NCBI GenBank assembly: GCA_045837725.1
Contig: JBEWZL010000267.1
Span: 1-64,000, forward strand
Length of the DNA: 64,000 bases
Direction of reading: 5' to 3'
DNA from: Vermamoeba vermiformis
Taxonomy: Eukaryota
Shown piece by piece: positions 20,386 through 61,328 of this stretch; within the stretch, counting starts at the first letter, position 1; each line of letters begins with the position of its first letter. The translations under genes were made by a program, and so were the position numbers. The notes below the pieces were generated by a model. It was given only the letters and a program-made list of their open reading frames with translations, was not told where the DNA came from and made no database searches.

Positions 20386-22759
20386 TTAAGCCACCTTATT
20401 CGTAACGTCTTCTAATGGTTTTCCACCCGCGACAGTCGCGTCCTTTTTCTGGGTCAAGTCGCACAAAAATTTGTCTTGCAGCATTTCAATTGCAGTTGGC
20501 CTGGCACTTTCGTCCTCTTCCAGGCATTTCGAGATGAACTTTAGTAATTTTTCATCCTTTACCAAGCTGTTCATGATTAGTAAATATTTTGAATGCCCGC
20601 GAAGTACTTACGCAGCGAGTTTGTGCTTGATCCATTCAATAATTTTCAGTTCATCTTTTTCGTTTGTGAATGAGTAAATAGGTTTACCAATCAACTACCA
20701 ATAATGTTAGTGAATGCAGAAAGATCGATGGACTTACCACTTCAATAACAAATATTCCAAACGCGTAAATATCTGCCTTCTCGGAATAAAATTTTCTCTT
20801 TACGACCTCTGGTGCGCGGTATCCTGTTGTTCCGCGCGAGGTGGGCTGATAAACCTGAAAAAGTTACGAACCCTTAGATCCGCGACTTCTGAATGCTTCG
20901 CTACCAACTTACTTTCGGCTCGTAAGACAAATCGAAGTCTACCAAATATGCCTGGTCACCCGTATCAATCACGTTGTCGAACTTCACGTCTCCGTGGCAC
21001 AGACCAACAGCGTGCATGTCCGCAAGTGCTTCGAGGACTTGTTTGGCTATTCTTCGTACTTGAGAGATATTCGAACGCGCTTCGTGAATCTTATTTTCCT
21101 TCCATTCGAATAGAGTTATGTGCACGCCATCAACGAGCTCTGTGACCCAGGGGTGAATGAACTTTTTGTTGTCGGATCCAAGTCGCTTGAGAACTTTCAC
21201 TTCAATCGGAGAGTCACGGAGATCAAGCTACATTATAAACGTGAGTAAATGGTGTTTAAAAAAACGAAGACATACTTTGGCCAAATACTTTTCGCCGGAT
21301 CCATTGTAGCGGACAACCTTCCTCGCGTGCTTTGTCAACTGAGCTAGTACCAAGAACATGCCAATTGAACGAAGCAACATCTCTGGATCGTTGACGGTGT
21401 ACAACTGCTCGGGTTGAATTTGCTTTTTCTTCGTGTTGATGTTCGTTGCGGTGCCTTTATTTTGATGGTCGCCGCCATTGTCGCCATCGTTGTTATCATC
21501 GTCCTCGCGCTTTTCCGACAGCTCCATCGAGGCCATTCTTTGGGCCACTTCACCGACGCTTGTATCGGACGTCGAAGAATTGATGCGGCTGTTGTCTGAC
21601 AATCTAGAAGGTGATTTGTTACTCGAAGATCGAGGTGCTGTTTTTTTGCCCCACGGCACTTGCAGCAGGACGGATAGCATGATTGAAAACACGCTGTTTA
21701 ATGAAGCGTAAATGTCTCGGGCTGACAGTGCCAAAGCGAACGTGCAACGAGCTTCTTCTTCTAAAAACACGCAGCAGTTATATACATCGTGCACGATATC
21801 ATATTCCATTTGAAATACGGTCACAGTGTCTGCGCCAATCAGGATACCAAAAATAGGACCGAACACCGACCTCTTCGGGAAATCCAATTGCCATCGCCGA
21901 ATCATTGAGCGCATTGTTTGAAGCAACTTGAATAAGTCCTTGTGGGTGGCAGACTTCTTTTTTACTCCGTATTCAGCCACAAGAAACGGTCGTTCATTCG
22001 AGCTGCAGAAATCTGGCTTGACGATCGGCGTAATCCAGGGAGGAAAATGATCGGAATTAATGTTGGAATTTCTGATGTGTACGAATATATCAGCATTATT
22101 GTCATGGTTAAAAATATTAGTACTTACGACCGGTTTTCAAACGACCAAAAAAAATTTTGCAACGCTGCGTAGATAGCAGTTGTCCAGTCCGTTTCAGTCC
22201 ACTTATCCTTTCTAGCGTATTTTAATCTCACCAAGGCATTGATATAAGTACTAAGGCTCTCTTTAACACGTAGATTCTCTCGTTCTTTAAACTCCGAAGG
22301 CAGCGCTGAATAAATGAGGTCGGCCAACTTAGCAACATCTCCTTCTGTCATGTAGTCTTCTTCATTTAATTGAGATATCAACTCGTCTATTTTTGCAAAA
22401 CGATGCTTTGGCAATTTCTGCGGATGTGGCTCGACGACGGGACAAATCCGCCACTTTGCTAATACTTGTGCCCCAGTGGACCTAAAATAATATATTAATT
22501 TACTTGGCAATAATAGTATTGATAATTTTGGTAAATACTCTGATAATTTTTTGTTTGCTACTGCACGCCAAAACGAATCTGTCCGATTCTCCGCTATGTG
22601 CCTCCAAATATTACGGCAATAATTTGTTCCATTTGTTTCAAGCTCAAATCTATTATCTAAAGAATAAATTAATTCGATCTGACATTTTTTGATTTTTTTT
22701 TAGATCAGTTGAGTACCTAGTTTGTCGGGCTCCTCGTCGTCTAAATAACACTCACTCAT
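20386..22759 (-). CDS. REase-like nuclease-kinase fusion, copy A (apparently intact)
   Basis: Exon 1 MSECYLDDEEPDKL; VKPDFCSSNERPFLVAEYG..HKDLFKL..M..IFGILIG; kinase YLAK, HGDVKFDN, DFD, RPTAIEML; tail PLEDVTN. Confidence 0.8.
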
Positions 22760-23165
22760 TCTACCATTCAATTGGTAGATGTTATTGCGGCCGCGTGTTA
22801 CTGCGGAGATTTTAAAACACAAATTGGCGCAATTATTTTATTTTGATTTAAAATGCAGTAAAATGTAACATGGCACTAACTGATTGTAAGTATTTGCTAT
22901 TTGGTATGTTTAGCATTTTCTAACAGATCATAGGCAAGGCAAAGGTCCTGGTTTTTGATGCGAACTCGAATCTTGTCTTGACCCGTGGTTCCGGGCGAGT
23001 ATGACTTGCGCATGGTAATTAGATCACTCGATGGATTAATAGAGCCAATTTGAAGGATATTCGCAAGTTCTATTTGGTGTCGAATCCCGATCAAGATCTT
23101 CAAAACTCAAAATTCGAACTAAAAACTGGTCTTCATGCATTCGAAGTGCACACGAAAGGTGTCTA
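22724..23165 (+). pseudogene. Inverted copy of 30395-30840: shared promoter plus truncated 5' exons of a copy-C paralog
   Basis: GTCGGGCTCCTCGTC...TTATTGCGGCCGCGTGTTACTGCG...ATGGCACTAACTGATTGTAAG...CACACGAAAGGT is the reverse complement of 30395-30840, with indels. Confidence 0.85.
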
Positions 23166-23499
23166 ATTTGATTAAAACAGGCCACATAATTAATTTTTAA
23201 GTTTTAATTTGCATTTTGATTTTCAATGCCGAATAAACGTTTAATAGTAATACTCATAGCGATTAAGTTATTAATTATTAATAAATATTAAAGATCCGAC
23301 CAAAGCATCGATGTATTTATCAGCTTAATACAAGGTGCGCGGTAATAGCGATTTTAGAGTTCACACGAGGAGAAAAACACGAGCGACGAGGGAGCTGACG
23401 AAGAGGACGTGCCAGAAAAACAAGTATCGAGTTCTTCGACTGAAAAATCTATCCACCAAGAAAAAGACCAAGAAGAGCGCTAAGACTGAGTCGAACAAA

Positions 23500-24130
23500 T
23501 CGATTAATGCTTCTTTGCCAACCATTGTTGCACGTGCTACTTTTAGCGACAAATTTAGTTTCTAATATGATAATTTCATTCAGAGCCTTAACAGCGGTGC
23601 AGATGACAACGGTAGTGGTTTTGTGTCAGTCTTGGAATTGGCACGCTTGTTCAGCAAGCTGTACGCGAGCAGTGAAAGAACACACTGCGTCGATACAACT
23701 TGTTGTTCTTGTTGACCGCCGGTGATAGCGCTAAAAGAATATTTACAACTCGCAGTGGGACGTTAGCTGGCAGCACGAGCGCTTCTCTCGTCCCAGAATT
23801 GCTGCAGGCACTGTTTCGGCGCACGCTGCTGCTGTTCCTGTTCACTTGCGCCGTGGTTTGTTTGACGATGCGTAAGTACTCGACAGCTATATAGTAATCC
23901 ATAGCATAATACTATTATCTGCCTCAACCAAGAGTTGAGAAGTTGTTGGATCTGGGACGATCCGCGAGACTTACTCAAACATTTTTCGGGTTCTGATACT
24001 TTTTTATTATCAGTCGTCATGCTAATGTCGATCGCTTGACCAAGAACATCAAGTTCGTTGCCGAATCATTGGCTAAATACGGTACGGACACCCAGACCAA
24101 CATCTTGTCCTTTACATTCTCATCAGAGTA
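23500..24130 (+). pseudogene. Nicalin-like (M28 family) gene fragments
   Basis: SLPTIV, SGADDNGSGFVSVLELARLFSKLY, RYNLLFLLTAG (after a frameshift) and VDRLTKNIKFVAESLAKY, with large internal portions missing. Confidence 0.7.
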
Positions 24131-24221
24131 CGTACTTTTGCTTCGTAGGCCTTAGTTTGTAATTACCATTTACGCAAATCAATACTCATTTTAATAATCG
24201 ACATTGTCAACTAAATAACAG

Positions 24222-24310
24222 AATTGGCCCTCGCTCACGAGAAACGATTGCTCCAAGAACTGCTCCCGCCTCATATTCTTCTGACCATGAACAACGAAGA
24301 ATACAAATAA
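24222..24310 (+). pseudogene. Orphan copy of the GSK3 terminal exon
   Basis: ELALAHEKRLLQELLPPHILLTMNNEEYK* is almost identical to 43280-43368. Confidence 0.9.
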
Positions 24311-24609
24311 GACCCCTGCTCCAGCTCTGTGAGAGCGAGTTAATTATTTAAACGCTTATGCAATATTTAAGAAGTTTGAAAGATCTCATCTTTTTTTTTT
24401 TTTTTTTTTTATCTATTTTTGCCCAACCAAATTATCTGTCAATGATTTGTTGCAACAGAACCAAATTAAACGTTCGCTTTCAATAACCAATCAACAACGC
24501 GTTAATTGCGTATGTAGGTTAACAGGACCTCAACCTACGTTAACTGAATACCAGATGTGATTTCCCTCATTTTGATATTGCCCTTTAGTGCGATTAGAAC
24601 TGCCAAAAA

Positions 24610-27600
24610 ATGGAGTCAGTAAGACGCCGAATAACAAAAAAGCCAAAGAAGCTCGATATTAAAGAGGAAATGAAGATCGCAGCCGGGAATAAAAATACAT
24701 CTGTCTCAAAACCAACCAAAAAAAGAAAATTGGAGGATTCCGATACTAATAATAATAACAGTAACAACAAAAAAAGAAAAACAGATAAATCAGGGCCGAA
24801 GAAATCAAGAGTTGCAAAAAGAGCGCCAAATCCGAAAACAAAGCCAGAGACAAAATATACAGCTTCGCAGCCTAACAACTATTATAATAAACAAGGAGGA
24901 TCCGATAAAAAGGATTCTACAGAAATAGCAGCCCAGAAATCCCGCCCGCCGAATCCGGATTTGCCAGAAAACGAAGCCAAAGAACCCAGTAAGTTTTCAA
25001 TCACACTTCTATCGGTGGTAAACTAACAAATATGAACGATGCCAGTGCCAAAGATCACGTTGGAAAACAAAGTCCTGACTGAACCCCTAAACTTCAGCGG
25101 TGCTCTTAGCAACCTAGAAAACTCAGTAGCGACCACGAGCGATGGTGAAAAGTAAGTCATCTGCACATGTACTTCCGCATTAATACCAATGCTTGGAAAG
25201 AGTAACGTTGCTAGAACTTTGTGAAGAGTTGAGTATACGTCCCATGGAGAACGGTATTCCAATGAATCTTAGCACCGTTCGGTTATTATGGAACGGAAAA
25301 ATGGAGAAGGGTGTGCTCCCCTTCGTCGAAAGTTTAATACCCAAACTGGTAACGACCGTACGTGTTATTAACCCAACTGCGAGGACGCTAACTTTAAACA
25401 GATCATGGAGTTCAAGCCGCACCAACAACAAGACACGTTTGCTGAACTACGCAAACCGATTGCCAGCAAAATTGCTGCGCACAATTCTGCCTTTGAAACG
25501 AATTTCAAACAGATTTTGCCCGATTTGGTCACCATTGTCGCATTCTGGGGACAAAAGCTAAAAATACGTTCCGACGCCTCAGAACAAGACTTCACGACCC
25601 TACTGTACGCCAGGCTATTCGAGCCGTTCTTTCAAGATCTCCCGTCAACACGATGCTCGGCCATGAGTCTTCCCGTCCCGTTTGAAAAGTTCAAACGTCA
25701 TCCTGACGCAAGCTCAGTTTGGAAAGACAAGGTTGAATTCGTCTACTTCATTCGGGAAGACTGTCCTGCCAAAGAAAGTAATGAGTATCACAAGCTCGTA
25801 CAACTGATGCGGTGTGCACTGCGGTTGCAACTCTTGCATTTACAACCATCAGAAGTACCGAGGACACTCTACTGCTTTGGCATTCTTACATCAGGCTACT
25901 TCGTACAACTACTGCAAATGCGAGTGGAACTTAATTCTGAAAAAGACTACGACAACCCACTCTACGAGCTCTGGGCCAAGTCCGAACTCGATCTTGCCGA
26001 ATTTGACGAAGCCTCTTTGACCAAGTTAATGACGTGGCTCATTGCTATTCGCACTTACCATTTCCATTTGAAAAACTTACTTAAGTCCTGGCCGGTAGTG
26101 ACAACCGCGCGTGAATGCCTGACAAGCAAAAGGTTCAACCATGCGAAAACTTCCACAACTTCACAAGGTGGAGGGAAATCCAAAAAGGATGATTGATCGG
26201 AAAATATTGAAGGAAGTTGGAGGATAGGGATAAGAAGAAAAAAAAAAGCCAAAGAAGAAGTCGATCAAGAAACGCTCGATGCGATTGTTTATGGTATCAA
26301 CAACAAAGAGTACGGTGTCCTACACGAGGTAAGCACTATGCGCTCAATGACAGTACTGGTGAGCTAACGGCCTTATTGTAGAATGCAAAGTACAACAAGC
26401 GAGTGCTTCTCGTGTGCACGACAGTCAAGCACATGAGACTGTTTGTCGTCAAGCTCTACGGTGCTGAATGTGACAACATGCACGAATTTGAAGTACTGAA
26501 AGTGCTTGGGCAACATCCAAACGTTTGCGAACTTCTCGCCGTTACTAAGCTCGAGAGTAAGTCTGGTATACGACATAATACGTATTATGAACTAATCATT
26601 TTAAACAGCTGGTGAACTTCTGACTGTACAACCGTACTACAGAGACAGCGATGATTGGTACAACGGCTACACGAAAAGAGAGATGTTTCCGTTAGTGTTT
26701 CTTCAGCTAGCAAAGGTTCGTGTCCCATCTATCCAAACAACAATACTAACAGCACCTATTAACAGGGTTTATCGCACGTGCACGATTGCGGTGTCATTCA
26801 TGGCGACATCAAGCCCTACAACTTCATGGTGGACTCGGATTGTAACACGCGCATCATCGACTTTGACTTCAGTGCTCGTGTGGACTCTGGTAAGCTCTCT
26901 TAAACGCTTTAAAAGGTCGTATATTAATTGATAATAGATGACATGGAGAGGCTTGGCGGAACAGAAGGCTATTACGCACCTGAGTGGTACGAGCGATACA
27001 AAAAAGAGACTGGAGATGCTCCGGTGACATTCAAGTTCGATATTTGGAGCTTGGCTATTACCATGTGCCAATACGTATGTTACAAATCATGCGTTCTAAA
27101 CTCTTAAAATCTAACTGGCATTACTTCAGGCTGGAGTTGAGTTCGATCAAATGGTAGATCCGCTCGAAAGACGTGCACAGATTCTTGAGGACATCAAATC
27201 TAAATCGTAAGATTATAATGCTGTACCATTGACGCTGTCAGTTGTTAACAGTGTTCTCGTTGACAGGTTCCTTTTGTGGCCAGTTGGCAGTTTGATCAAG
27301 CGAATGCTGGCAACTCATCCAGACGACAGACCAACTGCTTCAGAAGTGTTTGATGAGCTTGTGAAAGTGTACGGCGATTGTGGAATTGCTCGAAATGAAG
27401 TCAAAAGTGACCGAGCTGTTGTGCAACAGAACAAACTTCGTGAAGGTAAAGCAAGAATTGCTCAACAAGAGCCAGCAAACAAAACGTTGGAGACCAACAA
27501 TAGTCAAACTGCAAAGAAGCGTCAGTATGCGGATGATAACGATGAAAACAGAGACCAAAGCAATGGTCCAAAGATTAGACAACGAGTACCAGCAGCTGGC

Positions 27601-27666
27601 AAGAGAAACAAAGATGCCAAGAGCACTCGAGGTATTCTAAACGACATCACTAATGTTGTAAAATAA
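24610..27666 (+). pseudogene. REase-like nuclease-kinase fusion, copy B (in-frame TGA in linker)
   Basis: RHPDASS..IRED..YHKLVQLM..CFGILTSG; TGA at 26194-26196 is in frame with downstream KEEVDQETLD; kinase VVK, HGDIKPYN, DFD, YYAPE; tail RGILNDITN. Confidence 0.8.
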
Positions 27667-27851
27667 TGTTTTATGTTGTATATAATGTAAATATGTATCA
27701 TAGCTGCTTTGATTGACTTTATTTTTCCATATTGTACAAATATAAAGTCTAATTAATGACGAGATAACAGGTGTCGAAATATTATTTTAACGGATTTATA
27801 ACAACTTACAAGACTGTACATTACTATTCACAAATATTTACAAAACTATCG

Positions 27852-30698
27852 CTAAATTACTCGTCCTCGCGGGCCATGCCTGAATTCGTAGAATAACGGC
27901 TCTTGCAGTGCGTACGATGCGTCATAAACTAGACACAATTAACAAAATGGCTCGAACTAAGCTTGAAGCATGTTACCTTGCGTGACGTCCAACATTACAT
28001 GAACAAATGAAATTACTGCAGGACTAACGGGGAACAACGTTTGTGCAAGCTTTTCGTGCGTCATTTCAAGTAGTCTATCGTAGCCAACTTCACTCGGATC
28101 CACGCCGTAGATCTGCACATAAGTATTAGCAGCAGTCAAGAACGAAGTTAGGACCTTACCAGTTCGCACAACACGACACCAATATTGCAAAGATCATCGC
28201 GGAATCTCATTGGTTGATAATAATACTGCAAGAACCCTGGTGTTTGACCACGCCGATGAGTGCTAATGGCAACTCTTAGATAAAACAGGTACAAAATTAT
28301 AATACGTACTAATCTTTTTCAATAAGGATCTCTGATAATCCAAAATCGAGTAGCTTCACTTCGTTAAGCAGCTCATCGTACATGATATTCGATCGTTTAA
28401 TGTCGCCGTGAATGACATGGCACGCGTGCAACTTTTCAATCGCCTAAAGAAGCATTATTAAACGATAGAACCATTTTCAGCCATGAATACCTTTAATAAT
28501 GCGACGGTGAACGAGAGCAATGCACGCTCCGAGTTTATACGGAGCTTGTGCTGTCCTGTTAAACATTCAAGTACCAAACCTCGAATCATCTTCGTCTCAA
28601 ACCAGCGGACCAGCTTTGGTTTGCTTGAAAACGACAACTCTGCTAGTGTTAATGGTATATCAATTGAAATAACACGCTTACTTTCAAGCCATTCGTATAT
28701 CTTCTTTTCGTTCTCAAAATCCTCTTTGTTCGCGTACAATTTGACCACAACCGGACTCGAATCAGGCCCAATTGCTTTGACTACCAACGAATCGTCGTTG
28801 CTCTACGTAATTCGTTAATAAATATTTATATCTTCGCTAACTTACGTTTGGAAACTGCTCCACAAATGTCAAATCGAGCTGACTCAGCGCAACTTTCAGT
28901 TTGTTCAAATCGGACGCAAAAATGTCAACATTCGCGTTGTTATTGTTGTTGTTACTAGCGTTGCCTTGATTATTAGTGTTGTTATTATTGTTCGAGTTCG
29001 TTCGTTCTCCATTGCCAGTTGATGAGACGGCCTGTTCCACTTCGTCTTGGTCTGGTAGCGTCGAATAATACCATCTCAAATTCATATCCCTGCAAAGAAG
29101 AATTGATTAATGGATCTTTCTTAGCGACAAACAACTCAGGCTTGGAAATAGATCGCTTTTGGGTAATCCCTTGTTTCTTGCCTTCTTCGATTATATTTTG
29201 CATAGTTTTATGCTCTGACTGCTTCTCGTAACTTTTTTCTTTTTCGTTCGAGCGCAGGGCGTAAAATCTAAATTGTGGACCTGATGTCGTAATGCCAAAC
29301 ACGTAAGGGTTGTAACTCAACGCTTGAACAAAGCACTGCGATGCAACAGCCATTTCTCCTATCAACTTATCTCTGGAAGAATATTTCGGTCAGATCCGAT
29401 TTGACTTCAACTTGTAGTTCCACGCACCGGTCGTGCTCGACGTTGAGATCATCTGAGCCTTTAAACTCGGCGAGCAAATCGAGCATTAAAATATTAGAGT
29501 CTCCGCAGAGGTAGTCATATTGAGCAACGGGCAGCGTCTTGGCGTCGTAGACCAATTTGTTGAATAAAATTTTAGCTGGTCTTTTCTCCTTGCCTACTTG
29601 CGTGTACGATTTGACGAACATCCAGCCATCGCAAGCATCAGGCAAAATGCCCGAAGAATTGGACGAGAATAAATGTCGCGCTGTTGGTCCCAAAGTAATT
29701 TTGTCTGAGACTTGAAATTTCAGCAAGCTGGGAATAGAGTATTTTGAGTAAAATAACCGAACCATAAATGGTAATCATACCCTGATGGAACTGGTGCGAG
29801 ACAACATAGCGACAAAAGCGGCATGTAGAGGTTGACGTGCCAAAATATCTCCGCTCTCGGTTCCGTGAATACAGCTTCGAACTAATACAGTATTAATACT
29901 CCTTACTAGTAAGATACAGCTAGCTTACCTTCTTCCATAATTCAATGCCTTTACTAAGAAACGATTCAAATTCGGCATTGACGGTGTATCCAACAGCCTC
30001 CGAATCTCCGATCGCGCAATGTGGCAAACTTGCAAAAAGATCCGCGTGTTTCTAGGATACACTTAGTATTAATAGACAATAGAATTAAATTAGAAGCGTA
30101 CTTTGGCGAACTCTGCGCTGACCTTGAAGTCTTTGAGAATGATCCGTTGCAAAGTAATATCTAAATCCTGCTCGAACTCGTGTATTCTAATTTTCTCTTC
30201 CCGAAGAACTTTCGTTGATTGTTGCGTGGTACTCTGTTTTGGGTGCGGAGGCGCTGGTTGGCCTGAAAAATTAAATACGATTGTGTTTAATCACATTGGT
30301 CGGCTTTAATTATGAATAGTAATAAAATTTGAGCTCTTAACGTATTTTAAAATCAAAAAAATTATTTAGCCTTTGTTAGTAATAAAATACGATACCTTTC
30401 ATGTGTACTTCGAATTCATGAAGACCAGCGTTTAGTTCAATTTTTGAGTTTTGAAGATCTTGATCGGGATTTGACACCAAACAGAACTTGCGAATGTCTG
30501 TCAAATTGACCTCTCTTAATCCATCCAGTGATCTAATTACCATGCGCATGTCATACTCGCCCGGAACCACGTGGTCCTGGAGGGTTAGGACAAGATTCGA
30601 GTTCGCATCAAACACCAGAACCTTGGCCTTGCCTATTTTCGTGCGTTAGAAAATTATAAAATGCCGAATAACACATACTTACAATCAGTTAGTGCCAT
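27852..30698 (-). pseudogene. REase-like nuclease-kinase fusion, copy C (frameshifted)
   Basis: ATG 30698 MALTD; LPDACDGWMFV..QVEVKSD / (frameshift ~29390) RDKLIGEM..VFGITTSG; second apparent frame change ~29000-29090; kinase VVVK, HGDIKRSN, DFG. Confidence 0.75.
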
Positions 30699-30866
30699 GT
30701 TACATTTTACTCATTTTAAATCAAAAATAAAATAATTGCGCCAATTTGTGTTTTAAAATCTACGCAGTAACACGCGGCCGCAATAACATCTGAATGGTAG
30801 AATGAGTGAGTGTTATTTAGATGACGAGGAGCCCGACATACTAAACGACGTTCGTAGTTAATTCTT

Positions 30867-33055
30867 ATGGACAAAAAGCAAAAAGAGAAGGAAAAGAAGA
30901 AGGTTAAAGCGAAAGACAAACGCAAAAAGCCAAAAAAATCTAGTAAGTTGATATTATACGTAATTTAAAATTATGAAATTGGGTAAATATTAATTTTACA
31001 ATTTTGGAAGAATTAAAAGAAAAAGATCGAGGTGATCCAGCATCGGGCGGCCCCAGCCTTCATTGTAAGCTTCTAACTGCATTATAATTTAATAATGAGC
31101 ATTCTAGCTACCGATCAAACCCGGCTACAAGCACTAAGGAACAGCGTCGTTGCAGATGATACTAACCTCTACCTGTATAAGGCACAAGTATTGTATCCGC
31201 TTCGCATTCCAACAGAAGAGATAATGGACGAGATTCGCAAGAAATTGGAACGCACGCACCACTCCGATTTGCCATTTTTGAACATTCTCACTGAACTCTC
31301 TCTAAGAGCGACCGAGGAGTCACCTGATTATTGCTTGGAGTTTTTTTATGGCTTCTTTAAACACTGGCGCAAGATAATATACTACACGGACACAAAGAAC
31401 AAGTACAACGAATGGAGCCAGTTGATCACGTGCCTTGGCTTGGAGATGTTTTTCTACACGGACTTATTCTGCCCTTACCTACTGAGACCTTGCTTCAACG
31501 ATGATATGGACATATTTATCAAAGCAAATGCTTTCTTTTCAACTGTTAGGCCGGACATTAGCATCGGAGTTGCATTGCCCGACAAAATGCTCTGGATCTT
31601 GGCTGGCGAAGCGGCACGCCAAAATTACGAGCATTATTTGTTACACAAAGATGAAGGCAAACTTCGAGATTGTATGCGCGCTTGTATCGATGAACAGATC
31701 GAGCACTTGCCGTTGGAGTACTGTTGTGTGTTTGGTTTATTGCACGGTAGGACGTTTAATTTATCGATTCGAAGGGATTTTAATTCAAGTTTTAGGTGGT
31801 TCTTCGATAACAGTCTACATTATGCAGCCAGAGGCTACCGAAAACTCCGATCTGCTTTATTACAAGCGTCAAGTTGTCAAGGACCGACTACGTTTGACCG
31901 TTGCACAAGATTTGTTGGATTTTTTTAGTATAATGCAAGAAATAGAGCGACGTGCACGTTTAATGGTGGATAATTATGGCAAAAGAAACGAGCGTAATTA
32001 CAAGATTCCAGCACGTAATAATTTCATCGAAAAAGGGTCGAAAACACATTCCAAGAGCTCTTCAAAAAAGAGAAGGGGGGGCCGATCAAAACGAAAACAA
32101 TACCAATATCAAACCATCCAAGTCAAACAACGAACAAAACAAAGACACACTAGAATTAGAGGCCAAGTTGTTTTCACTACTGCCGGGAAGAGTCATTGAG
32201 TTAGGTTGGTCTTGGACTTTCATAGACGATAATTTCATTCGCGTTGGACAATACACTTTGGACAGCTCCGATCCAATTCACATTGCTTTGGTAGAAAAAA
32301 CATGTAGCCATGATAGAGAAACTATTTTCCTTAATACTTTGCGGCACAAGAACATTGTAACTTGCTACGGATCCTACGTGCGTACACAAAGTGATGGTAA
32401 GTTTCGGGTAGCATTGGAAGAGTATTATTAACTTTTTATGGCAGAACAAGGACGGATCAAATACATATTGATGCTTGAGCGATTAAAGCACATCGAAGCA
32501 GGCGATGACCCGAAGCGTTTTCTCCTACTAGCTCGCGATATTGCAAGTGGTCTAGCGTACCTTCACAGCTTAAACATCATGCATCGAGATCTCAAGCCGA
32601 AAAATATATTGCAAACACCATATCGAAATGGATGCGCTAAAATTGTGGATTTTGACTTAGCAAAAGAACTGAAGCACGAAAAAGGATTCAAAGCCTTTGG
32701 AGAAGGTGTTGGTACAACAGGATTTATTGCACCCGAAGTTTTAAAAGTTGACCCGAAAGTTGGCTACGATTTTAAGGCAGATATATATAGCTATGGAAAA
32801 ACATTGGAAAAGATATTTGGGGACAATGTAAGTTGCGCTTCCAAACATGTAGTTGCTGATTTTGTTCAGAGCAAGTTATATCACTCAACACTGGCAAAGC
32901 TTGTTGATGCGTGCATCAAAGTGGATCCAACACTTAGACCTAGTGCTCGTGCTATCGTAAAATATTTGACAAAGAAGATAGCAAAATACAGTGAAAGTAC
33001 TGTAGCGAGCAAAGCAGATGCCAGCATTGCAGAACCATCTTCTCGACAAACTTAA
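30867..33055 (+). pseudogene. REase-like nuclease-kinase fusion, copy D (frameshift in linker)
   Basis: Lys-rich exon 1 MDKKQKEKEKKK; VRPDISIG..ILAGEAA..HKDEGKLRDCM..VFGLLHG; frame change near AAAAAAGAGAAGGGGGG (~32064-32081); kinase HRDLKPKN, DFD, GTTGFIAPE. Confidence 0.75.
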
Positions 33056-33067
33056 ATTAATCATGTT

Positions 33068-33320: not shown

Positions 33321-33363
33321 CGGACAGCCTAATCCGATTTATGTACGACAGCAGGTTCTTGGG

Positions 33364-41089: not shown

Positions 41090-43368
<2,279 letters not shown>

Positions 43369-43754: not shown

Positions 43755-46700
43755 ATGGAGTCAGTAAGACGCCGGATAACAAAAAAGCCAAAGAAGTTCG
43801 ATATTAAAGAGGAAATGAAGATCGCAGCCGAGAATAAAAATACATCCGTCTCAAAACCAAACAAAAAAAGAAAATTAGAAGATTCCGATACTAATGATAA
43901 TAATAACAGTAACAAAAAAAGAAAAACAGATAAATCAGGTCCGAAGAAATGGCAAGCACGAGTTGCAAAAAGAGCGCCAAATCCGAAAACAAAGCCAGAG
44001 ACAAAATATACAGCTTCGCAACCTAAAAACTCGCGTAATAAAATAGGAAGATCCGATAAAAAGGATTCTATAGAAACAAAATCCCAGCGAACTGCGCTGA
44101 ATCCGGATTTGCCAGAAAACGAAGCCACAGACGAAACCTGTAAGTTTCAATCACTTCGACGGTGTTAAACTAACAACGACGCCAGCACCAAAGATCACTT
44201 TGGAAAACAAAGTCCTTACTAGCCCCCTAAACTTCAGCGGTGCTCTTAGCAAACTAGAAAACTCAGTAGCTACCACGAGCGATGGCAAAAAGTAAGTCAT
44301 CTGCACATGAACTTCCGTATTAATACTAATCCTTGTAAAGAGTAACGTTGCGAGAACTTTGTGAAGAGTTGAGTATACGTCCCATGGAGAACGGTATTTC
44401 AATGAATCTTAGCACCATTCGGTGGAGCGACACAATGGAGACGGATGTGCTCCCCTTCGTCGAAAGTTTAATACCCAAACTGGTAACAAACGTACGTATT
44501 ATTAACCCAACTACGAGGACGTTAATAACTTTAAACAGATCATGGGGTTCAAGCCACACCAACAACAAGACACGTTTGCTGAACAACGCAAATTGATTGC
44601 TAACAAAATTGCCACGCACAATCCTGACTATGAAAAGAATTTCAAACAGATTTTGCCTGATTTTGTCACCATTGTCACGAACTGGGGACAAGCTTCCAAC
44701 GCCTCCAAAGACTTCACGACCTTCACCAAGCTATTCCAGCCGTTCTTTCAAGATCTCCCGTCAACGCGATGCTCGGTCATGAGTCTTCCTGACACAAGAA
44801 GCTCAGTTTGGAAAGACAAGGTTGAATTCGTCTACTTCATTCGGGAAGACAGTCCACACAAAGACTTGCACAAGCTCACACAACTGATGTGGTGTGCACT
44901 GCGGTTGCAAATCTTGCATTTAAAACCGTCAAAAGAACTGAGGACACTCTACTGCTTTGGCATTCTTACATCAGGCTACTGCGTACAACTACTGCAAATG
45001 TTTGTTCGACTTAATTCTGAAAGAGCCTACGACAACCCACTCTACGAGCTCTGGGCCGAGCCTGAACTCAATCTTGCCAAATTTGACGAAGCCTCTTTGA
45101 CCAAGTTAATGACGTGGCTCCTTGCTATTCGCACTTACCATTTCCATTTGAAAAACGTACTAAAGGCCTGGCCGGTAGCGACAACCGCACGTGAATGCCT
45201 GACAACCAAAATGATCGACCTCAGAAAAAATTCCATGACTGACGACAGTGATTATGACGATGATAAGCAAGGCAAATTTGATCCAGCTCCAAGTAACAAT
45301 AATACCAATCGGCCACGAGGTTGTGAGACTAGTACGCCACAACCGAGTCCTTATAAAGCTTCCCAGAAACAAGGCTCAAAGGGCAACAAAGAAGAAGTCG
45401 ATCAAGAAACGCTCGATGCAATTGTTTATGGTATCAACAACAAAGAGTACGGTGTCCTACACGAGGTAAGTACTATGCGCTCAATGACAGTACAAGTGAT
45501 CTAACAGCCTTATTGTAGAATGCTAAGTACAACAAGCGAGTGCTTCTCGTGTGCACGACAGTCAAGTGCATGAGACTGTTTGTCGTCAAGCTCTACGGTG
45601 CTGAATGTGACAACATGCACGAATTTGAAGTATTGAAAGTGCTTGGGCAACATCCAAACGTTTGCGAACTTCTCGCCGTCACTAAGCTCGAGAGTAAGCT
45701 TGTTAATATTTCATGATACATACCATGAACTAATCATTTTAAACAGCTGGTGAAATTCTGACCGTACAACCGTACTACAGAGACAGTGATGATTGGTACA
45801 ACGGCTACGCGAAAAGAGAGATGTTCCCGTTAGTTTTTCTTCAGCTAGCAAAGGTTCGTGTCCCTCACCTATCATCAAACAACAATGCTAACGGCACCTA
45901 TTGACAGGGTTTATCACATGTACACGATGGCAGCGTCATTCACGGCGATATCAAGCCCTACAACTTCATGGTGGACTCGGATTGCAATACCCGCATCCTT
46001 GACTTTGACTTCAGTGCTCGTGTGGACACCGGTAAGCTCTCTGAAATGTTTGAGGGGTCACATATTAATCAACAATAGATGACATGGAGAGGCTTGGTGG
46101 AACAGAAGGCTATTACGCACCTGAGTGGTACGAGCGATACAAAAAAGAGACTGGAGATGCTCCAGTGACATTCAAGTTCGATATTTGGAGCTTGGCAATT
46201 ACCATGTGCCAATACGTATGTTACAAGTCATGCGTTCTAAACTCATAAAATCTAACTGGAATTATACTTCAGGCTGGCGTTGAGTTCGGTCAAATTGTAG
46301 ATCCACTCGAACGACGTGCACAAATTCTTGAAGATATCAAATCCAAATCGTAAGATTATAATGCTGTACCATCGATGCTGTCAGTTGTTAACATTGTTCT
46401 CGTTGACAGGTTCCTTTTGTGGCCAGTTGGCAGTTTGATTGAGCGAATGCTGGCAATTCATCCAGATGACAGACCAACTGCTTCAGAAGTGTTTGATGTG
46501 CTCGTGAAAGTGTATGGCGATTGTGGAATTGCTCGAAATGAAGTCAAAAGTGACCGAGCTGTCGCGCAACACAACAAACTTCGTGAAGATAAAGCAAGAA
46601 TTGTTCAACAAGAGCCAGCAAACAAAACGTTGGAGACCAACTATAATCGAACTGCAAAGAAGCGTCAGTACACAGATGATAACGATGAAAATAGAGACCA

Positions 46701-46809
46701 AAGAAATGGTCCAAAGATTAGACAACGAGTACCAGCAGCTGGCAAGAGAAACAAAGATGCCAAGAGCACTCGAGGTATTCTAAACGACATCACTAATGTT
46801 GTAAAATAA
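43755..46809 (+). CDS. REase-like nuclease-kinase fusion, copy F (open linker; close paralog of B)
   Basis: SLPDTRSS..IREDSPHKDLHKLTQLM..CFGILTSG; ORF 44542-45504 reads through the linker into the kinase exons (HGDIKPYN, DFD, YYAPE); tail RGILNDITN. Confidence 0.8.
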
Positions 46810-51120: not shown

Positions 51121-53697
51121 CTAATCCGACTCGTCCATAGTTACAGTGATGTCGTCAAAGTAAGGATGCTCTAAGCACACCTCAGCGCTGGGTCGCTCTT
51201 CCGGATCTTCCTCCAACATGGTTCGCACGAGATCCACTGCAACAATTAGCAAATATTAATTATTTTTTACTTTACGTACCTAATTTAGGTGTCGCTAGCT
51301 CTGTATATTCGCCACTGTTAACCCTCTCGATGAGTTTCTCTCTTGCTGCAAACGAGTCTATTCTCGTGTTGTACATCTGCTTGCCTGTTAGTGCTGCGTT
51401 GAAAATTATTGACCAATACCTTTTCAGCACAAACAAGTCCTGCTGCAAATATATCGACCTTGTTGCTCTCAAAGTCACCGTCTAGTCTTTCTGGTGACAT
51501 ATAAACGTACGTGCCGCCAAATTTGTACTTGAGGGTCTGACCAGGGTAAAGCGTTGTTGCGAACTAACAAATTGTTATTTTACAGCTATAAAAACGAATA
51601 ATTATGTCTTACCGCGAAATCGATCAATTTTACGTGGTTGCTAGCCGAAAGCATTACATTCGCATGCTTTATATCTCCGTGAACGCAGTAACGCGAATGC
51701 ACATGCAGTAATGCCTAAAAGAATCATAAACGACTTTTCTTATTACTGACGATAGAACGTACCTGAAGTAACTCCCAAATGAACATTTGTAACTGGCTGT
51801 GCGTAGTGAATTCTGGCAATGGATTTAATTTCTCCATGATCAATCGTGCCTCGTTTTTCGCATCCAAGTGCAAAAGTTTAACTACATAACGGCCTAAAAT
51901 CAGCATTAGTACCTTTCGATAGTTACACCACGACCTTACCTTGTAATTTGTGAAGCATGGTGGCTTCGTACAATGCTTCGCTTTGACTTTTAATGAACTT
52001 CACTGCTACTTCGTAACCGCCGCTTGTTACAGCCAAACAAACACGCGTCGAAGGGCCCTAATAATTTGTTAGAACTTTACGTAGTAACTACTAAGTCTTA
52101 CAGAATACAGCTCTCGGGTTATAACTGCATCACTGACATCAATACAAATTCGCTGTTTCGTTTCTTTGACGGCATTAATATTAGGAGCAGACTTCGTATT
52201 ACTTATGCTCGCTGTCGAAGGAGAATTTACGGCTTGATTTTTGCTTCTATTTGAAGGTTTTGGCTTCTCATTAACCGCCAACTGCTTAATTTCATCAATA
52301 AGTTCGGCTTGCTCTGCTTCAGAAATTAATTCGAGCCGACATGTGCACGACAAATTGTAGGCTGCCAACCGCTGCAAAATAACTCCAAGTTGTAACCAAG
52401 ATAAATAGCTTTTTGTGAGCTTGTGCGTGTAGATGTGATGCGCTTTGTAGACGAAATCGGGTGAATCGCTGCCTTGCAGTACGTAAAAATGCCAATTTAG
52501 ACCAAGGCAGTAAGCACCGAGTGTATAACGTCTATTTTTTTTAAATAAGCGCCTCTCGATGTCGCGAGCGATGGCTAACTCGATTAACAACTTGCACCTT
52601 GAGAACGTGTTAGAAAATAACGCAATTGATTTGATTGCTTACACGTCATTGGTCCCCGTGCCTCCTGAACTACATTCTGCGATAAAACTCGGAACAAACA
52701 CGCGACTTGCGTTGGGTGTCCATCCATCGGCCTTGATAATGCGATACAAAAGATCGATCATCGCCGAATCCTCTGCAAAAAAGCACACCATATTACCATC
52801 TGGATTAATACGCCAATGTCCGGCAACTAAGTCTGGTTTGACTTCGATCGGGGCATCAGCTTTCACGTGGACTGGAAATGTCGGGTACTGATGAAGTGTG
52901 TAATATCGCCTATGTAAGCGATAATACTTTAGAATATATTGGCCAACAAGTAGATTTAAGATCCAAACTTACGACACTGTGAATCCAAAATAATGACAGA
53001 GGTGCTCCGCCATTGTCTCGATTTTTGCATCATTTTTGGAGTTCTTATCGATCGTTAGGTAATTAGTGCGCACTATACTAAAATAGTCGCGCCATTGTTC
53101 ATTAATGACGTGATCTATTGTCCAGTTGTCTGCAAATTGCTGGTAAGTTCCCTCGTTTTTTATCACAACCTTGTCTTTCTCCTAATAACAATATCAATAA
53201 TGTAACGGCAAATTATTATTTCTTACTTGAGAGCGCAGATGCTTGGCGTGCTCATCTGTAACCGGAATTATGGTGGTATCGAAGATTGACCAAGGAAAGT
53301 GCGGCAGAGCTTCTCGCTGAACTGTGAAACTTCGTTCGGCATTAATATCAAAGTCTATCTTCGCCTGATCCAAGTGTGTCTTTGTAAACTTCAAGCTGGA
53401 TACCTCCGCGAACTGTTGCGGTTGTCCTTCTTGTAAATTTAACGCTAAGCCTAAGTGTTGAACGGAAAACATTCTTACGCTACTCATTCCAATATATTTA
53501 TCAGGAGTTTCTTCGTGAAGGGCTGTCTCATCCGGAGATTGCGGAGGAGTATTTAGATCTTCCTCAATAACATCAATAATTTTTCCTAGCCAATGTGTGG
53601 ATAAATAATTTTCTTGTCGCATAATTGGAGAAGAACAAATTGAGGTAAATCCGAATTTTGGATCGGATTTTGACTGGTCCGGCAGATTCTGCTCCAT
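51121..53697 (-). CDS. REase-like nuclease-kinase fusion, copy G
   Basis: VKPDLVAG..FIAECSSG..DVCKLLIEL..TLGAYCLG; kinase VAVK, HGDIKHAN, DFA, GGTYVYMSPE, RPSAEVCLEHPYF. Confidence 0.78.
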
Positions 53698-58625: not shown

Positions 58626-61328
58626 ATGAACAATAACAAGGACGATAAAATAAAGGAGGAGGAAGGTGAAGAAGAGGAAGGTAAGTTTGCTTGCCTTGGA
58701 GCGAATCTCCATTTTTGTCTTTTATTTAACGAGCAAATAAATTAATGCGAGCTAAATAGTTAAATTAAGACAGATCGCAAAGCAGATACGCTGAGGTCAT
58801 CGCAGGAAATCGCAGCGCATTTGCCCCATTGGAAAGAAGGTATTAAAATAGATTTTTGGGCACATGTCTCCATAAGAGAAGTTAACGAGACCAAATGCAA
58901 GAGGTACGCAGATTTAGAAATTAATGGATCGATTATTTATTTTATCGTAGTGTCCAGGAATTATTTGCGCGGTGGAAGATTGTTCCTAAATGGAAGAGTA
59001 TCGACGATCTGTTTTATGAGTCTTTAAGGGACTTCTTTCCTGAGCACAAAAACAAATCTGGTGTCGATCTTGAGTTGGCATTTGGCAGTTTAACAACGTA
59101 TTTGGACTCAATGCTTAAGGTAGATTAGACTATCACGTTAGTACGGATTTGGCTAAAGATTTTCTTATTAGCACGTCTTTGGCGGGGCTAAAGGAAAGGT
59201 CAACCCGATCGCATCCAAAACAAAAGAAGAAGTTTGCAATAAGCTGCAAGAATACGCCAATAAGTTGGTATGTAATAATATATTATATAATATATTTTAT
59301 CAAACTACGTATGATAACGGTCCTACTATTAGCCAGAGAAATACCGATCGTTGTTTCCAACACCATTCGGGTACCATTTGCAAAACTTGTACATGGCGCT
59401 GTCGCAATCAAACAGAGATAAGTGGAGCGAGCGAACGTGGGACAACATAGTTTATGCCAATGTCTTCCATCGTTATTTTATTGACGACTTCGATCCTGTG
59501 CAAAAAAGGTCGGTGGAACTCGATCAAAAAAGTTGCTTTGCAGCAACTAATAATATTTGTTTAGTGACCAATCAGTGAGTGACTACTTGCCAACTTCACT
59601 GCGGAACTCGGTAGCCCCAGACCTTGTATTTCTCTCGGACAGATCTCCTTTTTTGATTTCCGAGTGGGGGGAGCTGGAACACGCTAGTAACCACACAGAC
59701 TTGACGAAAATAGTCGAGACGAAACGTGGAGTGCTGCTTAAACGATCAGAGCAATACTTAAGCAGTACAAACTACGTTTATGGCGTGCTTGGTGGTGGTG
59801 AGAAATTGACGATATTCCGCATGGAGCACGATAGAGCAGCGAAGTTATACGATTGCTACTTCATCTCAGATTCTCAAGACGACTTGTGCACAACGACTTT
59901 TTCTTTCGAAAATATCGCAACGATACTACGGATCAATATCATATTGATGATCGGCGGCAAGCTGCAAAAATTGGGCGTCGGAAAGCGCGGCGCGGAAAAA
60001 AGCTCAACGCGCCTGTGACTACGGCTACGCCGGATAAAATCGACAACAGCAATGCGTTGAAGTCTACAGTGACCACTAAAAAGCGCAACATAAAGAAGTG
60101 TCGTTCAATGACCGATCTGCAAAAAACAAAGTCAAGTAACGGTGAAACTGACTCCATGTCACGTGACTTTGCCAAAAAGTTGTTATTTGGAACGACCGAT
60201 ACGAGCACTAATACGACCACTACCAACACAAATGTAATGCAAGATGAAGGAAAAAAGAAATCGAGAAGTGGCAGTAGGAAAAAGCCAACAGAAGCTGTTG
60301 AAGAGGATCCAGATCCGAGTCTGATCGGAAAAAAGCTCTACAATAACAAATACACTATTACAAAGAAGTTGACGTCGTTCGTTTACATCGTTTCGCATTG
60401 GGATAATCACTATATCGCTAAGGTAAGAATATTTATACATACTCAAAGCTGATTAAAATTAACTAATTTTGGATCCGGATCCAGTTCAATGTTACGTCGA
60501 AAGATTTGGCGAAAGAAGAGAAGATATTGGCAGAGCTTAGCAACAGGTTCCTCAAGCCGATAGAATCATTCAAAATGAATGATAAAGTACGGTGCTTAAT
60601 ACTTCCGTACGTCCGATCGGTTGAGTGGAAGGATACGAAGGATTTCACTGAACGAGCCTTTGCAATAATTTCCGCAATCAATGAGCTGCACGAGAAGAAT
60701 ATATCACATAGTGATATCAAGTACTCTAACGTCATTTGCGGACGAGAAGGAACTTACCTGATCGACTTCGATCTAGCTTTACGAATGAACGGTACGTTAT
60801 AATAATTTTTGATATTAATTCTAATAATTCTAATAGATCTATGGCAAGGAAAATTCAATGGAACATTCGGTTATAGAGCTCCTGAAGCAATGCGTTACGG
60901 AAGATTATCGTTGAAAATGGATATTTATTCTTATGGAATTCTTTTGTTCGAATTGGCAAGCTTTGAGAGTATTTACGATAATCCTCTAATATACGATGAT
61001 AATGAAGAGCAAATGGCTGCAAATGTTCGCGTCGAAATTCAAAAGTAAGATCCGATCTCGCTTACGAGAACTTAAAACTAAATTTAATGTTGAAATTAGG
61101 ATGGGCCTTGCTACATCATGGCATGCTAAATTAGTAGCATTAATTAACAAGTGCATGACTGAAGATCTGGACAAACGTCCGACAGCTAAAGCGATCATGG
61201 AAGATCCGTTTTTTAATAGCGCTCGTAATGCTCAAACAAAAGAGGCAAGCGATAAAAAACAACGTGGCGTTGTTAAGAAGCCTTTCCAAGACGTCACTAA
61301 CACTTGGCAAAACTCAAAATTTGTATAA
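58626..61328 (+). pseudogene. REase-like nuclease-kinase fusion, copy H (frameshift after nuclease domain)
   Basis: VAPDLVFLSDRSPFLISEWG..HTDLTKIVETK..VYGVLGGG; frame change ~59930-60015; kinase YIAK, HSDIKYSN, DFD, GTFGYRAPE; tail PFQDVTN. Confidence 0.75.

Follow-up and report, generated by a model that had tools for sequence, protein, structure and literature searches.

Eight genes (A to H) arrayed in a 64,000-nt window of Vermamoeba vermiformis (contig JBEWZL010000267.1, positions 1 to 64,000 of the forward strand) encode protein kinases, and profile searches place one and the same domain ahead of the kinase in six of them (A, B, D, E, F and H). In structural models this pre-kinase domain has a restriction-endonuclease-like (REase-like) fold, and it is fused to the kinase in one protein. 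We tentatively favour the reading that the array encodes a rare and fast-diverging two-enzyme protein family, in which an REase-fold nuclease would be combined with a kinase that gates it, a mechanism that we infer.

The array and its gene models

The eight spans, all of which have an ATG start and a stop codon on the strand given, were resolved as follows.

Gene A, 20386..22759, minus strand: 675-aa spliced model, 6 introns (GT-AG, 43-99 nt); alpha-1 helix in exon 22124-22699, REase-like core 21621-22136, kinase 20386-21227
Gene B, 24610..27666, plus strand: entire REase-like domain in the single exon 25372-26196, with PD at 25699-25704 and a degenerate HKD motif; kinase exons 26382-27666
Gene C, 27852..30698, minus strand: kinase with a probable, though divergent, REase-like domain (ILPDA ... 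VEVK ... VFGITTSG, 28985-29774)
Gene D, 30867..33055, plus strand: REase-like domain at about 31407-32000 with a 49-nt intron (31747-31795) inside; kinase 32200-33055
Gene E, 35923..38771, minus strand: 792-aa spliced model, 9 introns; alpha-1 helix in exon 37772-38137, REase-like core 37198-37752, kinase 35923-36941
Gene F, 43755..46809, plus strand: open spliced model of 863 codons; REase-like domain in exon 44506-45504
Gene G, 51121..53697, minus strand: kinase and N-terminal region (VKPDL ... FFAED, 52069-52968); spliced model of 717 aa
Gene H, 58626..61328, plus strand: helix alpha-1 59333-59578, REase-like core 59554-59979, kinase 60467-61328

The frames of A, E, F and G are open across 6-9 introns, mostly with GTAAGT-type donors. 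The initial annotation had claimed that the genes share no DNA similarity apart from B and F, and blastn (word size 11, E<=1e-3) confirmed this, with similarity in 1 of the 28 gene pairs. Gene F is a duplicate of B, with 85-93 % nucleotide identity and 9 splice sites in common. The neighbours of the array are housekeeping genes (RPL4, a GSK3-like kinase, ALIX and JAB), and there is no transposon-like block.

A diverged pre-kinase domain and its fold

We ran leave-one-subfamily-out profiles over the 1248 ORFs of the window. The left-out exon was retrieved in each case (E-values: A 6.4e-19, H 1.1e-17, E 4.7e-12, B 7.3e-9, F 9.1e-7 and D 9.3e-4), and at the level of sequence profiles A, B, D, E, F and H therefore form a single family with one shared pre-kinase domain, its subfamilies being about 15-27 % identical. 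Gene C is a probable member, its piece 28988-29389 always coming next in the ORF ranking (E 0.0017-0.064, rank 8-9 of 1248); the piece from gene G reached E 0.3-7 with the same profiles. In hhalign comparisons the probability was below 3 % for all four C and G pieces and below 1 % for those from G. Of the eight-gene family of nuclease-kinase fusions proposed initially, the kinase stands in all eight genes and the common pre-kinase domain in six, with C only probable and G not placed. The motif strings quoted in support of that family for A, D, E and H are indeed present in the sequence, as is the EVK of C. The strings ILPDL and ILPDF of B and F were considered as the PD motif and rejected, as the model places them within a helix; RHPDA (B) and SLPDT (F) hold the PD that aligns with the rest of the family.

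The domain matched no Pfam family, even at E<=10, and had no sequence match to any PDB chain. It is also rare, with 27 matches among 1.84 billion representatives. By these searches the sequence family fits no described family; with Crinkler-type (CR) proteins it was compared by architecture and header motifs.

Two AlphaFold (AF2) models were obtained, one for the gene B exon itself (mean pLDDT 78.9, pTM 0.74, core blocks above 90) and one for P0028, an orthologue of D. Both contain the alpha-beta-beta-beta-alpha-beta core of the restriction-endonuclease fold, with the following elements assigned by DSSP.

Gene B exon: helix 71-87, strand 92-94, strand 112-118, strand 121-130, helix 137-156, strand 164-174
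P0028: helix 102-118, strand 136-138, strand 152-158, strand 161-170, helix 182-199, strand 209-217

In the gene B model, PD lies just ahead of the second strand, the third strand ends in ED, and FG is found in the last strand. The initial annotation had agreed in advance to be judged by whether the domain models as a restriction-endonuclease fold. At the fold level it passes, since both models adopt such a fold.

Structural comparison against 48,161 chains using VIA-align gave 3j7y_5 (Z 9.5, 171 residues aligned) and 7a5f_s3 (Z 9.2) as the first two matches of the gene B model, which we take to be the mitoribosomal proteins mL65 and mL37. They were followed by DrdV (7.7), BpuSI (7.5), TT1808 (6.6), BbvCI (6.3), HsdR (6.2), a putative REase (6.2), a protein annotated as 'REase-like fold' (6.0) and EcoRI (5.5), and about 13 of the 19 rows with at least 100 aligned residues were nucleases of the REase fold. 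The P0028 model recovered the same set of neighbours, with BpuSI at Z 8.4 and the mitoribosome chains at 8.2 and 7.8. Over both models, EcoRI scored 5.5-6.2, the Holliday resolvase Hjc 5.0-5.2 and the HsdR fragment 3h1t 5.7-6.2. The best Z values, 7.5-9.5, are middling and, according to VIA-align's own note, near those that unrelated models can attain. Foldseek searches with both models returned nothing at E<=0.001.

The domain shares its core fold with BpuSI, DrdV and HsdR (type IIG/IIL and type I enzymes) and with TT1808/DUF820-type proteins (Z 6.2-8.4), in which the PD aspartate and the strand-3 acidic residue have equivalent secondary-structure positions. These proteins, however, come from prokaryotes, combine the fold with other partner domains and have the lysine of the canonical ExK. 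The mitoribosomal chains are the best structural matches, with 171-172 residues aligned including the core-flanking helices. In contrast to the domain described here, whose acidic residues are conserved and to which they are 8-9 % identical, they bind rRNA and have no kinase.

The kinase, the fusion and the C-terminal motif

In each of the eight genes, one exon ORF matched Pfam PF00069 (Pkinase) above its gathering cut-off of 31.7 bits (A 32.8, B 43.6, C 40.4, D 96.2, E 59.0, F 40.9, G 34.0 and H 36.0 bits). The catalytic motifs HxD and DxKxxN (read as H[GRAS]D.K..N) and DF[GDA] are intact in all eight, at a mutual identity of just 21-40 % in comparable pairs of models. The kinase is a eukaryotic protein kinase (ePK) of ordinary type and, judged from its sequence, apparently active. 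For the kinase exon of gene D, the top PDB sequence match was IRE1 (E 2.5e-16), with STE20 and RAF kinases barely behind.

Regarding the fusion, the gene models of A, E, F and G run from the domain through a disordered linker into the kinase within one spliced frame. Single ORFs span the domain into the kinase in the relatives P0004, P0005 and P0028, and both domains are carried by P0025, a transcript-derived relative of 605 aa (hhalign probability 94.8 %, E 5e-8). In a further relative, contig L001, the domain, the kinase exons and the C-terminal motif all lie on the same strand. The spliced frames and P0025 thus bear out the earlier proposal that a disordered linker and a kinase follow the domain.

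A motif of the form [LF]xD[IV]TN sits 1-8 residues from the stop codon in five of the eight genes.

Gene A, 20398-20409, minus strand
Gene B, 27643..27654, plus strand, RGILNDITN
Gene E, 35941-35952, minus strand
Gene F, 46786-46797, RQVLGDITN
Gene H, 61290-61301

The C-terminal end of L001 reads RQVLGDITNQIN. The motif was not found in C and D, and gene G ends in DDITV. The destruction box recognised by the APC/C has the consensus RxxLxxxxN, which is fitted by B, F and L001; A, E and H keep the L/F, I/V and N positions without the arginine.

Putative function and relation to known systems

In the reading that we prefer, the protein would consist of a helical N-terminal region, the PD-(D/E)xK-like domain, a low-complexity linker of 100-150 residues, the kinase and, in most members, the C-terminal motif. 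The REase-like domain would act as a metal-dependent nuclease on DNA in the nucleus, with acidic residues supplied by a glutamate of helix 1, the PD aspartate where strand 2 begins and the glutamate at the end of strand 3, and with a lysine from the start of helix 2 (HKDxxK) in place of that in the classical ExK position. The fused kinase may gate the nuclease in cis or in trans, as proposed for the REase-kinase modules of Crinklers and as genetics has shown for Spok, and the D-box-like C-terminal motif may restrict the presence of the protein to some phases of the cell cycle. The data show the fold, the fusion, the family and the conserved residues, whereas catalysis, gating, a nuclear location and any role in conflict or as a toxin are put forward as predictions, and a toxin/antidote, driver or defence role would follow by analogy only. 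An improbable extension would make the genes Spok-like self-contained killer/protector elements outside Ascomycota. A variant PD-(D/E)xK nuclease would then damage DNA if the fused kinase did not neutralise it, and the presence of the protein would be timed by a cyclin-like C-terminal degron; the family would have split into eight specificities within one array, and a heterolobosean would share it patchily.

Residue conservation across the family is evident in the sequence alignment. The counts, over rows with a residue in the column and with near-identical orthologues among the rows, are P 29/31, D 25/30, strand-3 E 32/33, H 31/36, helix-2 K 34/35, G 34/37 and helix-1 E 9/11. In the models, the conserved Asp and Glu occupy the canonical strand positions. 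Two residues past the strand-3 Glu, the lysine expected for (D/E)xK is missing from A, B, D, E, F and H and kept in C (EVK) and P0025 (EDK), and an alternative, near-invariant lysine is found at the start of helix 2. The PD aspartate is lost in some relatives (PQ in P0010 and PN in P0011).

It is possible, in our view somewhat less so than an active nuclease, that the REase-like domain has been repurposed to bind nucleic acids or to dimerise, without catalysis, and that the proteins are simply nuclear kinases, perhaps cell-cycle-regulated via the D-box-like C-terminus. Such a role would agree with the intact kinase motifs in all eight genes, the lack of the canonical lysine in six, the fit of B, F and L001 to the destruction box, and the top structural matches being mitoribosome chains, which are described as rRNA-binding 'repurposed endonucleases' (PMC8998825). 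However, the acidic residues in canonical positions and one lysine are almost invariant despite the low identity between subfamilies (about 15-27 %), and the arginine of the destruction box is missing in A, E and H. REase folds without catalysis usually lose the acidic residues and the lysine at the catalytic positions.

Three of the eight genes (B, D and H) are not a single open frame in this assembly, and every break lies in the linker. Gene B has an in-frame TGA at 26194-26196 (codon 479), its only internal stop. Gene D has a frameshift near 32066 and gene H one near 60009, where residues 1-141 of the orthologue P0002 correspond to frame +1 and the remainder to frame +3. These breaks, the degenerate HKD of B, the replaced helix-1 (alpha-1) Glu of F, the dN/dS of 0.82 for the domain exon of B versus F and the open spliced model of C, which was obtained only with weak donor sites, could indicate an array made up mostly of decaying pseudogenes with no present function. 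We regard this as quite unlikely, as A, E, F and G remain open through all their introns, the kinase motifs are kept in all eight genes at 21-40 % mutual identity, and open orthologues with 95-98 % identity occur in other assemblies. The low-complexity linker, which holds all three breaks, is where assembly or allelic indels are likely. Among short-read contigs, that of run X2 is 16 nt shorter at 32066 (depth 395.5 of 395.5), which brings gene D into frame, and one contig skips 54 nt containing the stop of gene B.

The two-enzyme reading has precedents in architecture. According to a review (PMC5289972), REase plus kinase accounts for approximately one sixth of Crinkler-type C-termini, and the combination also occurs in Spok proteins (PMC6660238). 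The initial annotation had called the family Crinkler/Spok-like. The architecture does match these precedents; membership of either family is not supported, as neither the Crinkler header motifs nor the Spok cysteine cluster were found in the eight genes and the kinase is an ordinary one rather than ELK-like.

Spok proteins of Podospora likewise combine an N-terminal domain, a PD-(D/E)xK-fold domain, a disordered linker and a kinase, and form multiple diverged paralogues. In Spok, the nuclease is canonical with a QxxxY motif, the kinase is ELK-like, and a Cys/His cluster of the form C-x3-C-x13-C-x5-H-x7-H precedes it (PMC6660238). In the array, by contrast, the lysine position is shifted, the kinase is of the Pfam Pkinase type, and a relaxed six-frame regex scan of the eight genes found no match to the cluster. 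We consider it very unlikely that the genes are selfish elements of the Spok type, each combining a killing nuclease domain with a protecting kinase domain, although the domain order is identical, the paralogues are multiple and very diverged, and the structural matches include the HsdR fragment 3h1t of Vibrio vulnificus (Z 5.7-6.2), named in PMC6660238 as the best HHpred hit of Spok. Besides the absent cluster and the ePK-type kinase, the genes lie amid housekeeping genes and not in a transposon-like block.

Crinkler C-termini of the REase plus kinase type (e.g. Phytophthora CRN8) resemble the proteins of the array in having the REase fold followed by the kinase in one polypeptide, in forming large, diverged and lineage-specific families, and in a nuclear site of action, proposed in both cases. 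Unlike Crinklers, the eight genes have no header and no detected sequence relation to them; a six-frame regex scan for the LxLFLAK and HVLxxP motifs of the ubiquitin-like LFLAK/DWL header, as defined in PMC6131194, gave zero matches in the eight genes, and the N-terminal exons that were scanned matched no Pfam family. That the genes are secreted Crinkler effectors delivered into a host is highly improbable given these absences and the lysine-rich, basic N-termini of B, D and F, which are NLS-like and not signal-peptide-like, even though Crinkler C-termini commonly combine REase and kinase (PMC5289972) and the language-model neighbours come from Mucoromycota, a group with reported Crinklers.

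IRE1 and RNase L differ from the proteins of the array in the reversed order of the domains and in a nuclease fold (the KEN domain) that is unrelated, and the sequence likeness to IRE1 is limited to the generic kinase domain. They resemble them in carrying a kinase and a nuclease in one chain, and in IRE1 and RNase L the kinase controls the nuclease.

Array members and their domains

The eight gene spans proposed by the initial annotation all run from an ATG to a stop codon on the strand assigned to them, and DNA similarity is, as had been proposed, restricted to the pair B and F, which share 85-93 % identity. The genes are listed below with the results that bear on their two domains and on their C-termini.

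Genes A-H: span, strand; score of the kinase exon ORF against Pfam PF00069; E-value in the leave-one-subfamily-out search (1248 ORFs); position of the C-terminal motif [LF]xD[IV]TN
A: 20386-22759, minus; 32.8 bits; 6.4e-19; 20398-20409
B: 24610-27666, plus; 43.6 bits; 7.3e-9; 27643-27654
C: 27852-30698, minus; 40.4 bits; see text; no motif
D: 30867-33055, plus; 96.2 bits; 9.3e-4; no motif
E: 35923-38771, minus; 59.0 bits; 4.7e-12; 35941-35952
F: 43755-46809, plus; 40.9 bits; 9.1e-7; 46786-46797
G: 51121-53697, minus; 34.0 bits; see text; see text
H: 58626-61328, plus; 36.0 bits; 1.1e-17; 61290-61301

A kinase had been claimed for every gene, and each of the eight indeed has an exon ORF above the PF00069 cut-off (31.7 bits), with readable catalytic-loop and DFG-type motifs. 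Identity over the kinase region was 21-40 %, mostly 21-30 %, among the comparable model pairs other than B/F (B was left out of this comparison). The kinase exon of D lies at a similar distance from kinases of the IRE1, STE20 and RAF types (E ~1e-16 to 1e-13). The kinases of A-H are ePKs.

Upstream of the kinase, a common chain of motifs had been described. We searched all 1248 window ORFs of at least 30 aa using profiles of 25-31 family rows, from which one subfamily at a time, meaning the window copy and its database relatives, was omitted to avoid circularity. The chain held for A, B, D, E, F and H, is probable for C and could be neither supported nor dismissed for G, whose piece reached only E 0.3-7 in these searches and less than 1 % in hhalign. 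The sequence does contain the motif strings given for A, D, E and H, as well as the EVK claimed for C (within VEVK). A piece of C at 28988-29389, containing VFGITTSG, was the next-best ORF in all five leave-out searches (E 0.0017-0.064), and because of this rank and its ILPDA and VEVK strings, C is a probable divergent member of the family. Neither hhalign nor BLASTP could demonstrate the domain in C or G. In B and F, the strings ILPDL and ILPDF resemble a PD motif but sit in a helix of the model; aligned with the other members, the PD of B falls in RHPDA and that of F in SLPDT.

Modelled fold and putative active site

The REase fold foreseen for the pre-kinase domain was recovered in two AlphaFold2 models, both with family alignments as input. 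The model of P0028, the orthologue of gene D (443 aa including a 16-residue intron read-through, 41 rows), had a mean pLDDT of 52 with blocks of 60-91 over residues 140-300. The model of the gene B exon (253 aa, 34 rows) had a mean pLDDT of 78.9 and pTM of 0.74, and its residues 110-250 fall in blocks above 90. Both models show the same order of elements: helix 1, a short strand, a strand directly after PD, a strand with the conserved Glu in last position, helix 2 starting from HKD, a strand with [FY]G, a hairpin and a long helix. Both were searched against 48,161 PDB representatives.

Best core-covering structural matches of the gene B model (Z score)
3j7y_5, mitoribosome chain: 9.5 (rmsd 3.7, 171 aligned)
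7a5f_s3, mitoribosome chain: 9.2 (172 aligned)
DrdV 7.7; BpuSI 7.5; TT1808 6.6; BbvCI 6.3
HsdR fragment 6.2; putative REase 6.2; "restriction endonuclease-like fold" protein 6.0
EcoRI 5.5; NucC 5.3; Hjc 5.0; McrBC 4.9; Kpn2I 4.8

Judged by entry title, about 13 of the 19 rows with at least 100 aligned residues are REase-fold nucleases, counting TT1808, which we take to be one; many short rows cover the N-terminal helical hairpin only. The P0028 model gave the same set of matches (BpuSI at Z 8.4), with REase-fold nucleases in about 20 of 33 rows of that length. The two mitoribosome chains are presumably mL65 and mL37. PMC8998825 terms these mitoribosome proteins "repurposed endonucleases". Foldseek returned nothing at E<=0.001, the best hit being a mitoribosome chain (probability 0.97, E 0.028), and the search tool warns that an arrangement common to many proteins can give Z below ~8. 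What carries the fold assignment is thus not one score but the consistency between two independent models, together with the make-up of the match lists. Taken as a whole, the fold, the fusion and a family of six to seven members are very probably real.

Conservation was counted in the family alignment over rows with a residue in the column; these rows are not independent, since near-identical orthologues and a few upstream exons that are misaligned count among them. The Pro of PD is conserved in 29/31 rows and its Asp in 25/30, the strand-3 Glu in 32/33, the helix-1 Glu in 9/11, the His of HKD in 31/36 and its Lys in 26/36, the second Lys (HKDxxK) in 34/35 and the Gly of [FY]G in 34/37. In an antiparallel hairpin, the start of strand 2, with the PD Asp, would adjoin the end of strand 3, with the Glu, which matches the canonical arrangement. 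At the classical position, two residues beyond the Glu, Lys is absent in A, B, D, E, F and H and present in C (EVK) and in the relative P0025 (EDK), which lacks both helix-2 lysines. This complementary pattern of classical and helix-2 Lys suggests that the lysine of the domain may have been relocated. Phospholipase D carries an HKD motif of the form HxKxxxxD; a motif of that type was rejected for the family, as the spacing of HKDxxK is different and the modelled fold is REase-like.

Substitutions occur within the array as well: the HK of HKD is gone from B, as is the helix-1 Glu from F. The chances that the domain is an active nuclease appear roughly even. The favoured, tentative reading, somewhat less likely than not, is that the proteins of A-H act as kinase-gated nucleases; a non-catalytic scaffold is a less likely rival.

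Gene integrity and surroundings

Spliced frames of A (675 aa, 6 introns), E (792 aa, 9 introns), F (863 codons, 9 introns) and G (717 aa, 9 introns) are open from the ATG of the initial annotation to the stop. Introns in the window are short and of GT-AG type, mostly 43-60 nt, with GTAAGT-type donors in most; the window is eukaryotic DNA with a G+C content of ~41 %. The model of B, built on nine splice sites common to F, is open except for a single in-frame TGA at 26194-26196 (codon 479, in the linker). The model of D, built on an intron seen from its orthologue, has a frameshift in the linker near 32066 in the window assembly, and H has one in the linker near 60009, where its 95 %-identical relative P0002 follows frame +1 to residue 141 and frame +3 beyond.

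In the window assembly, three of the eight genes are thus broken, each time within the low-complexity linker; other data lack at least one of these breaks. We compared the sites in B and D with contigs of X2, a DNA run labelled as the same organism and possibly from the source sample. At 32066 they lack 16 bases at full depth (395.5/395.5), and with this form D is open across 654 codons; one X2 contig omits the 54 bases at 26194-26247 that hold the stop of B. These differences are either assembly errors or alleles in low-complexity sequence. Decay of the array, of which the breaks in B, D and H would be signs, is improbable given the open frames and the X2 contigs.

In two RNA-seq runs labelled as the same species, X10 and X12, reads over 20386-38771 were found only at 24220-24314, ~95 nt; there is no housekeeping gene in this region to serve as control, so the absence of reads is uninformative on expression. 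The covered piece, between A and B, has 35-60 reads with two fixed differences and loose ends on both sides, and is probably a ~95-nt piece common to an expressed locus elsewhere.

The strands of the genes alternate strictly along 20386-61328. The ATGs of C and D lie head to head with 168 bp between them, 185 bp separate the stops of B and C, and from D onwards ordinary genes are interspersed in the array. The B/F duplication (24010-27716 and 43155-46859) reaches ~450 bp upstream of the ATG, and dN/dS between the two copies is 0.82 on the REase-like exon versus 0.53-0.55 on the N- and C-terminal exons. The neighbours are ordinary: hybrid histidine kinases, a carboxypeptidase, a GSK3-like kinase, ALIX/BRO1, a JAB protein, RPL4 and F-box proteins. 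No Rfam family was found within the window.

Some neighbouring features
1-12000: eight ORFs of 134-234 aa with no Pfam family at E<=0.001, which may be further lineage-specific coding sequence
12840-17244, minus: tandem hybrid histidine kinases, adjacent ORFs of 458 and 1016 aa, each with HisKA, HATPase_c and Response_reg
33692-35315, minus: gene between D and E, F-box-like at its N-terminus, with a cysteine-rich region that matches C1_2 weakly (E 7e-4)
63187-63585: second F-box gene

Relatives and comparison with Crinkler and Spok proteins

Among 1.84 billion representative proteins, the domain profile found 27 relatives at E<=0.001, 17 at <=1e-10 and 4 at <=1e-30. They are mostly exon-sized ORFs, which group with the subfamilies of A, B/F, D, E and H; P0004, P0005 and P0028 carry domain, linker and kinase within one ORF. 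The only full-length relative found beyond the close kin of the window is P0025, a complete 605-aa ORF from the EukProt transcriptome of the heterolobosean Pharyngomonas kirbyi, in which a Pkinase match (E 8.6e-33) comes after the domain (hhalign probability 94.8 %, E 5e-8). As this ORF comes from a transcriptome, at least one organism has domain and kinase fused within a single transcript. The family is distributed patchily, over a fungus-like genome, that of the window, and a heterolobosean.

A metagenome scan with the relative P0016 recovered one contig, L001, where kinase exons and the C-terminal motif lie on the same strand as a domain of the B/F type; a scan with P0031 gave no match. Word-indexed protein searches returned nothing new (no match, the query only, or P0017 only), Pfam has no family for the domain even at E<=10, and the domain profile had no match among PDB sequences at E<=10. 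As leads only, the language-model neighbours in the ESM Atlas that score highest (0.94 and 0.91) are unnamed Mucoromycota clusters; among named families, PF20516 PDDEXK_12 comes closest to both A and B, at 0.79 and 0.75.

Two conflict systems with REase-kinase fusions have been described, Crinkler toxins and Spok drivers, and in neither is it settled how the kinase restrains the nuclease. According to the review PMC5289972, roughly one in six CR C-termini is of this type, the REase being held responsible for toxicity and the kinase for regulation; for Spok, PMC6660238 reports that K240A in the nuclease abolishes killing and D667A in the kinase abolishes resistance. Of the Crinkler/Spok-like architecture claimed for A-H, the REase-kinase order stands and is the same as in Crinkler REase-kinase C-termini and in Spok, but membership in either group fails on the header, the Cys/His cluster and the kinase type. 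The Spok Cys/His cluster was found in no frame of A-H, and their kinase, in contrast to that of Spok, is an ePK; Spok-like drive is, despite the common architecture, very improbable. LxLFLAK-like and HVLxxP Crinkler motifs were likewise found in no frame and no Pfam family on the N-terminal exons scanned, so that secreted Crinkler effectors, for which the domain order would speak, are highly improbable.

The genes appear to form a third REase-kinase family, unrelated in sequence to Crinkler and Spok. It would be a new sequence family with a known architecture, and full-text searches on REase-kinase families in Mucoromycota, Crinkler or Spok contexts yielded no description of it; the CR-REase listings in the supplements of Zhang et al. 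2016 might already include it. Its own features are the apparently relocated lysine, the ePK, the cyclin-like C-terminal motif and the patchy spread. Its domain is compact and modelled with confidence, its kinase is an ordinary ePK, and some natural variants lack single catalytic-site residues; the family thus offers a set of constructs for asking whether kinase-gated nucleases are a general design.

In five genes, A, B, E, F and H, the conserved C-terminal motif [LF]xD[IV]TN is separated from the stop by 1-8 residues; in L001 it is found at ~2480-2524. The looser pattern D[IV]T[NV] has 11 matches in a six-frame scan of the window, of which six are at the ends of A-H genes, counting G, which ends in DDITV; the chance expectation over all frames is, by a rough estimate, ~5. 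The destruction box of B-type cyclins has the consensus RxxLxxxxN. The Arg of this consensus is absent in A, E and H. If the motif is a degron, it would tie the nuclease-kinase module to the cell cycle. A fit to the full consensus is seen in RGILNDITN of B and F and in RQVLGDITN of the distant relative L001.
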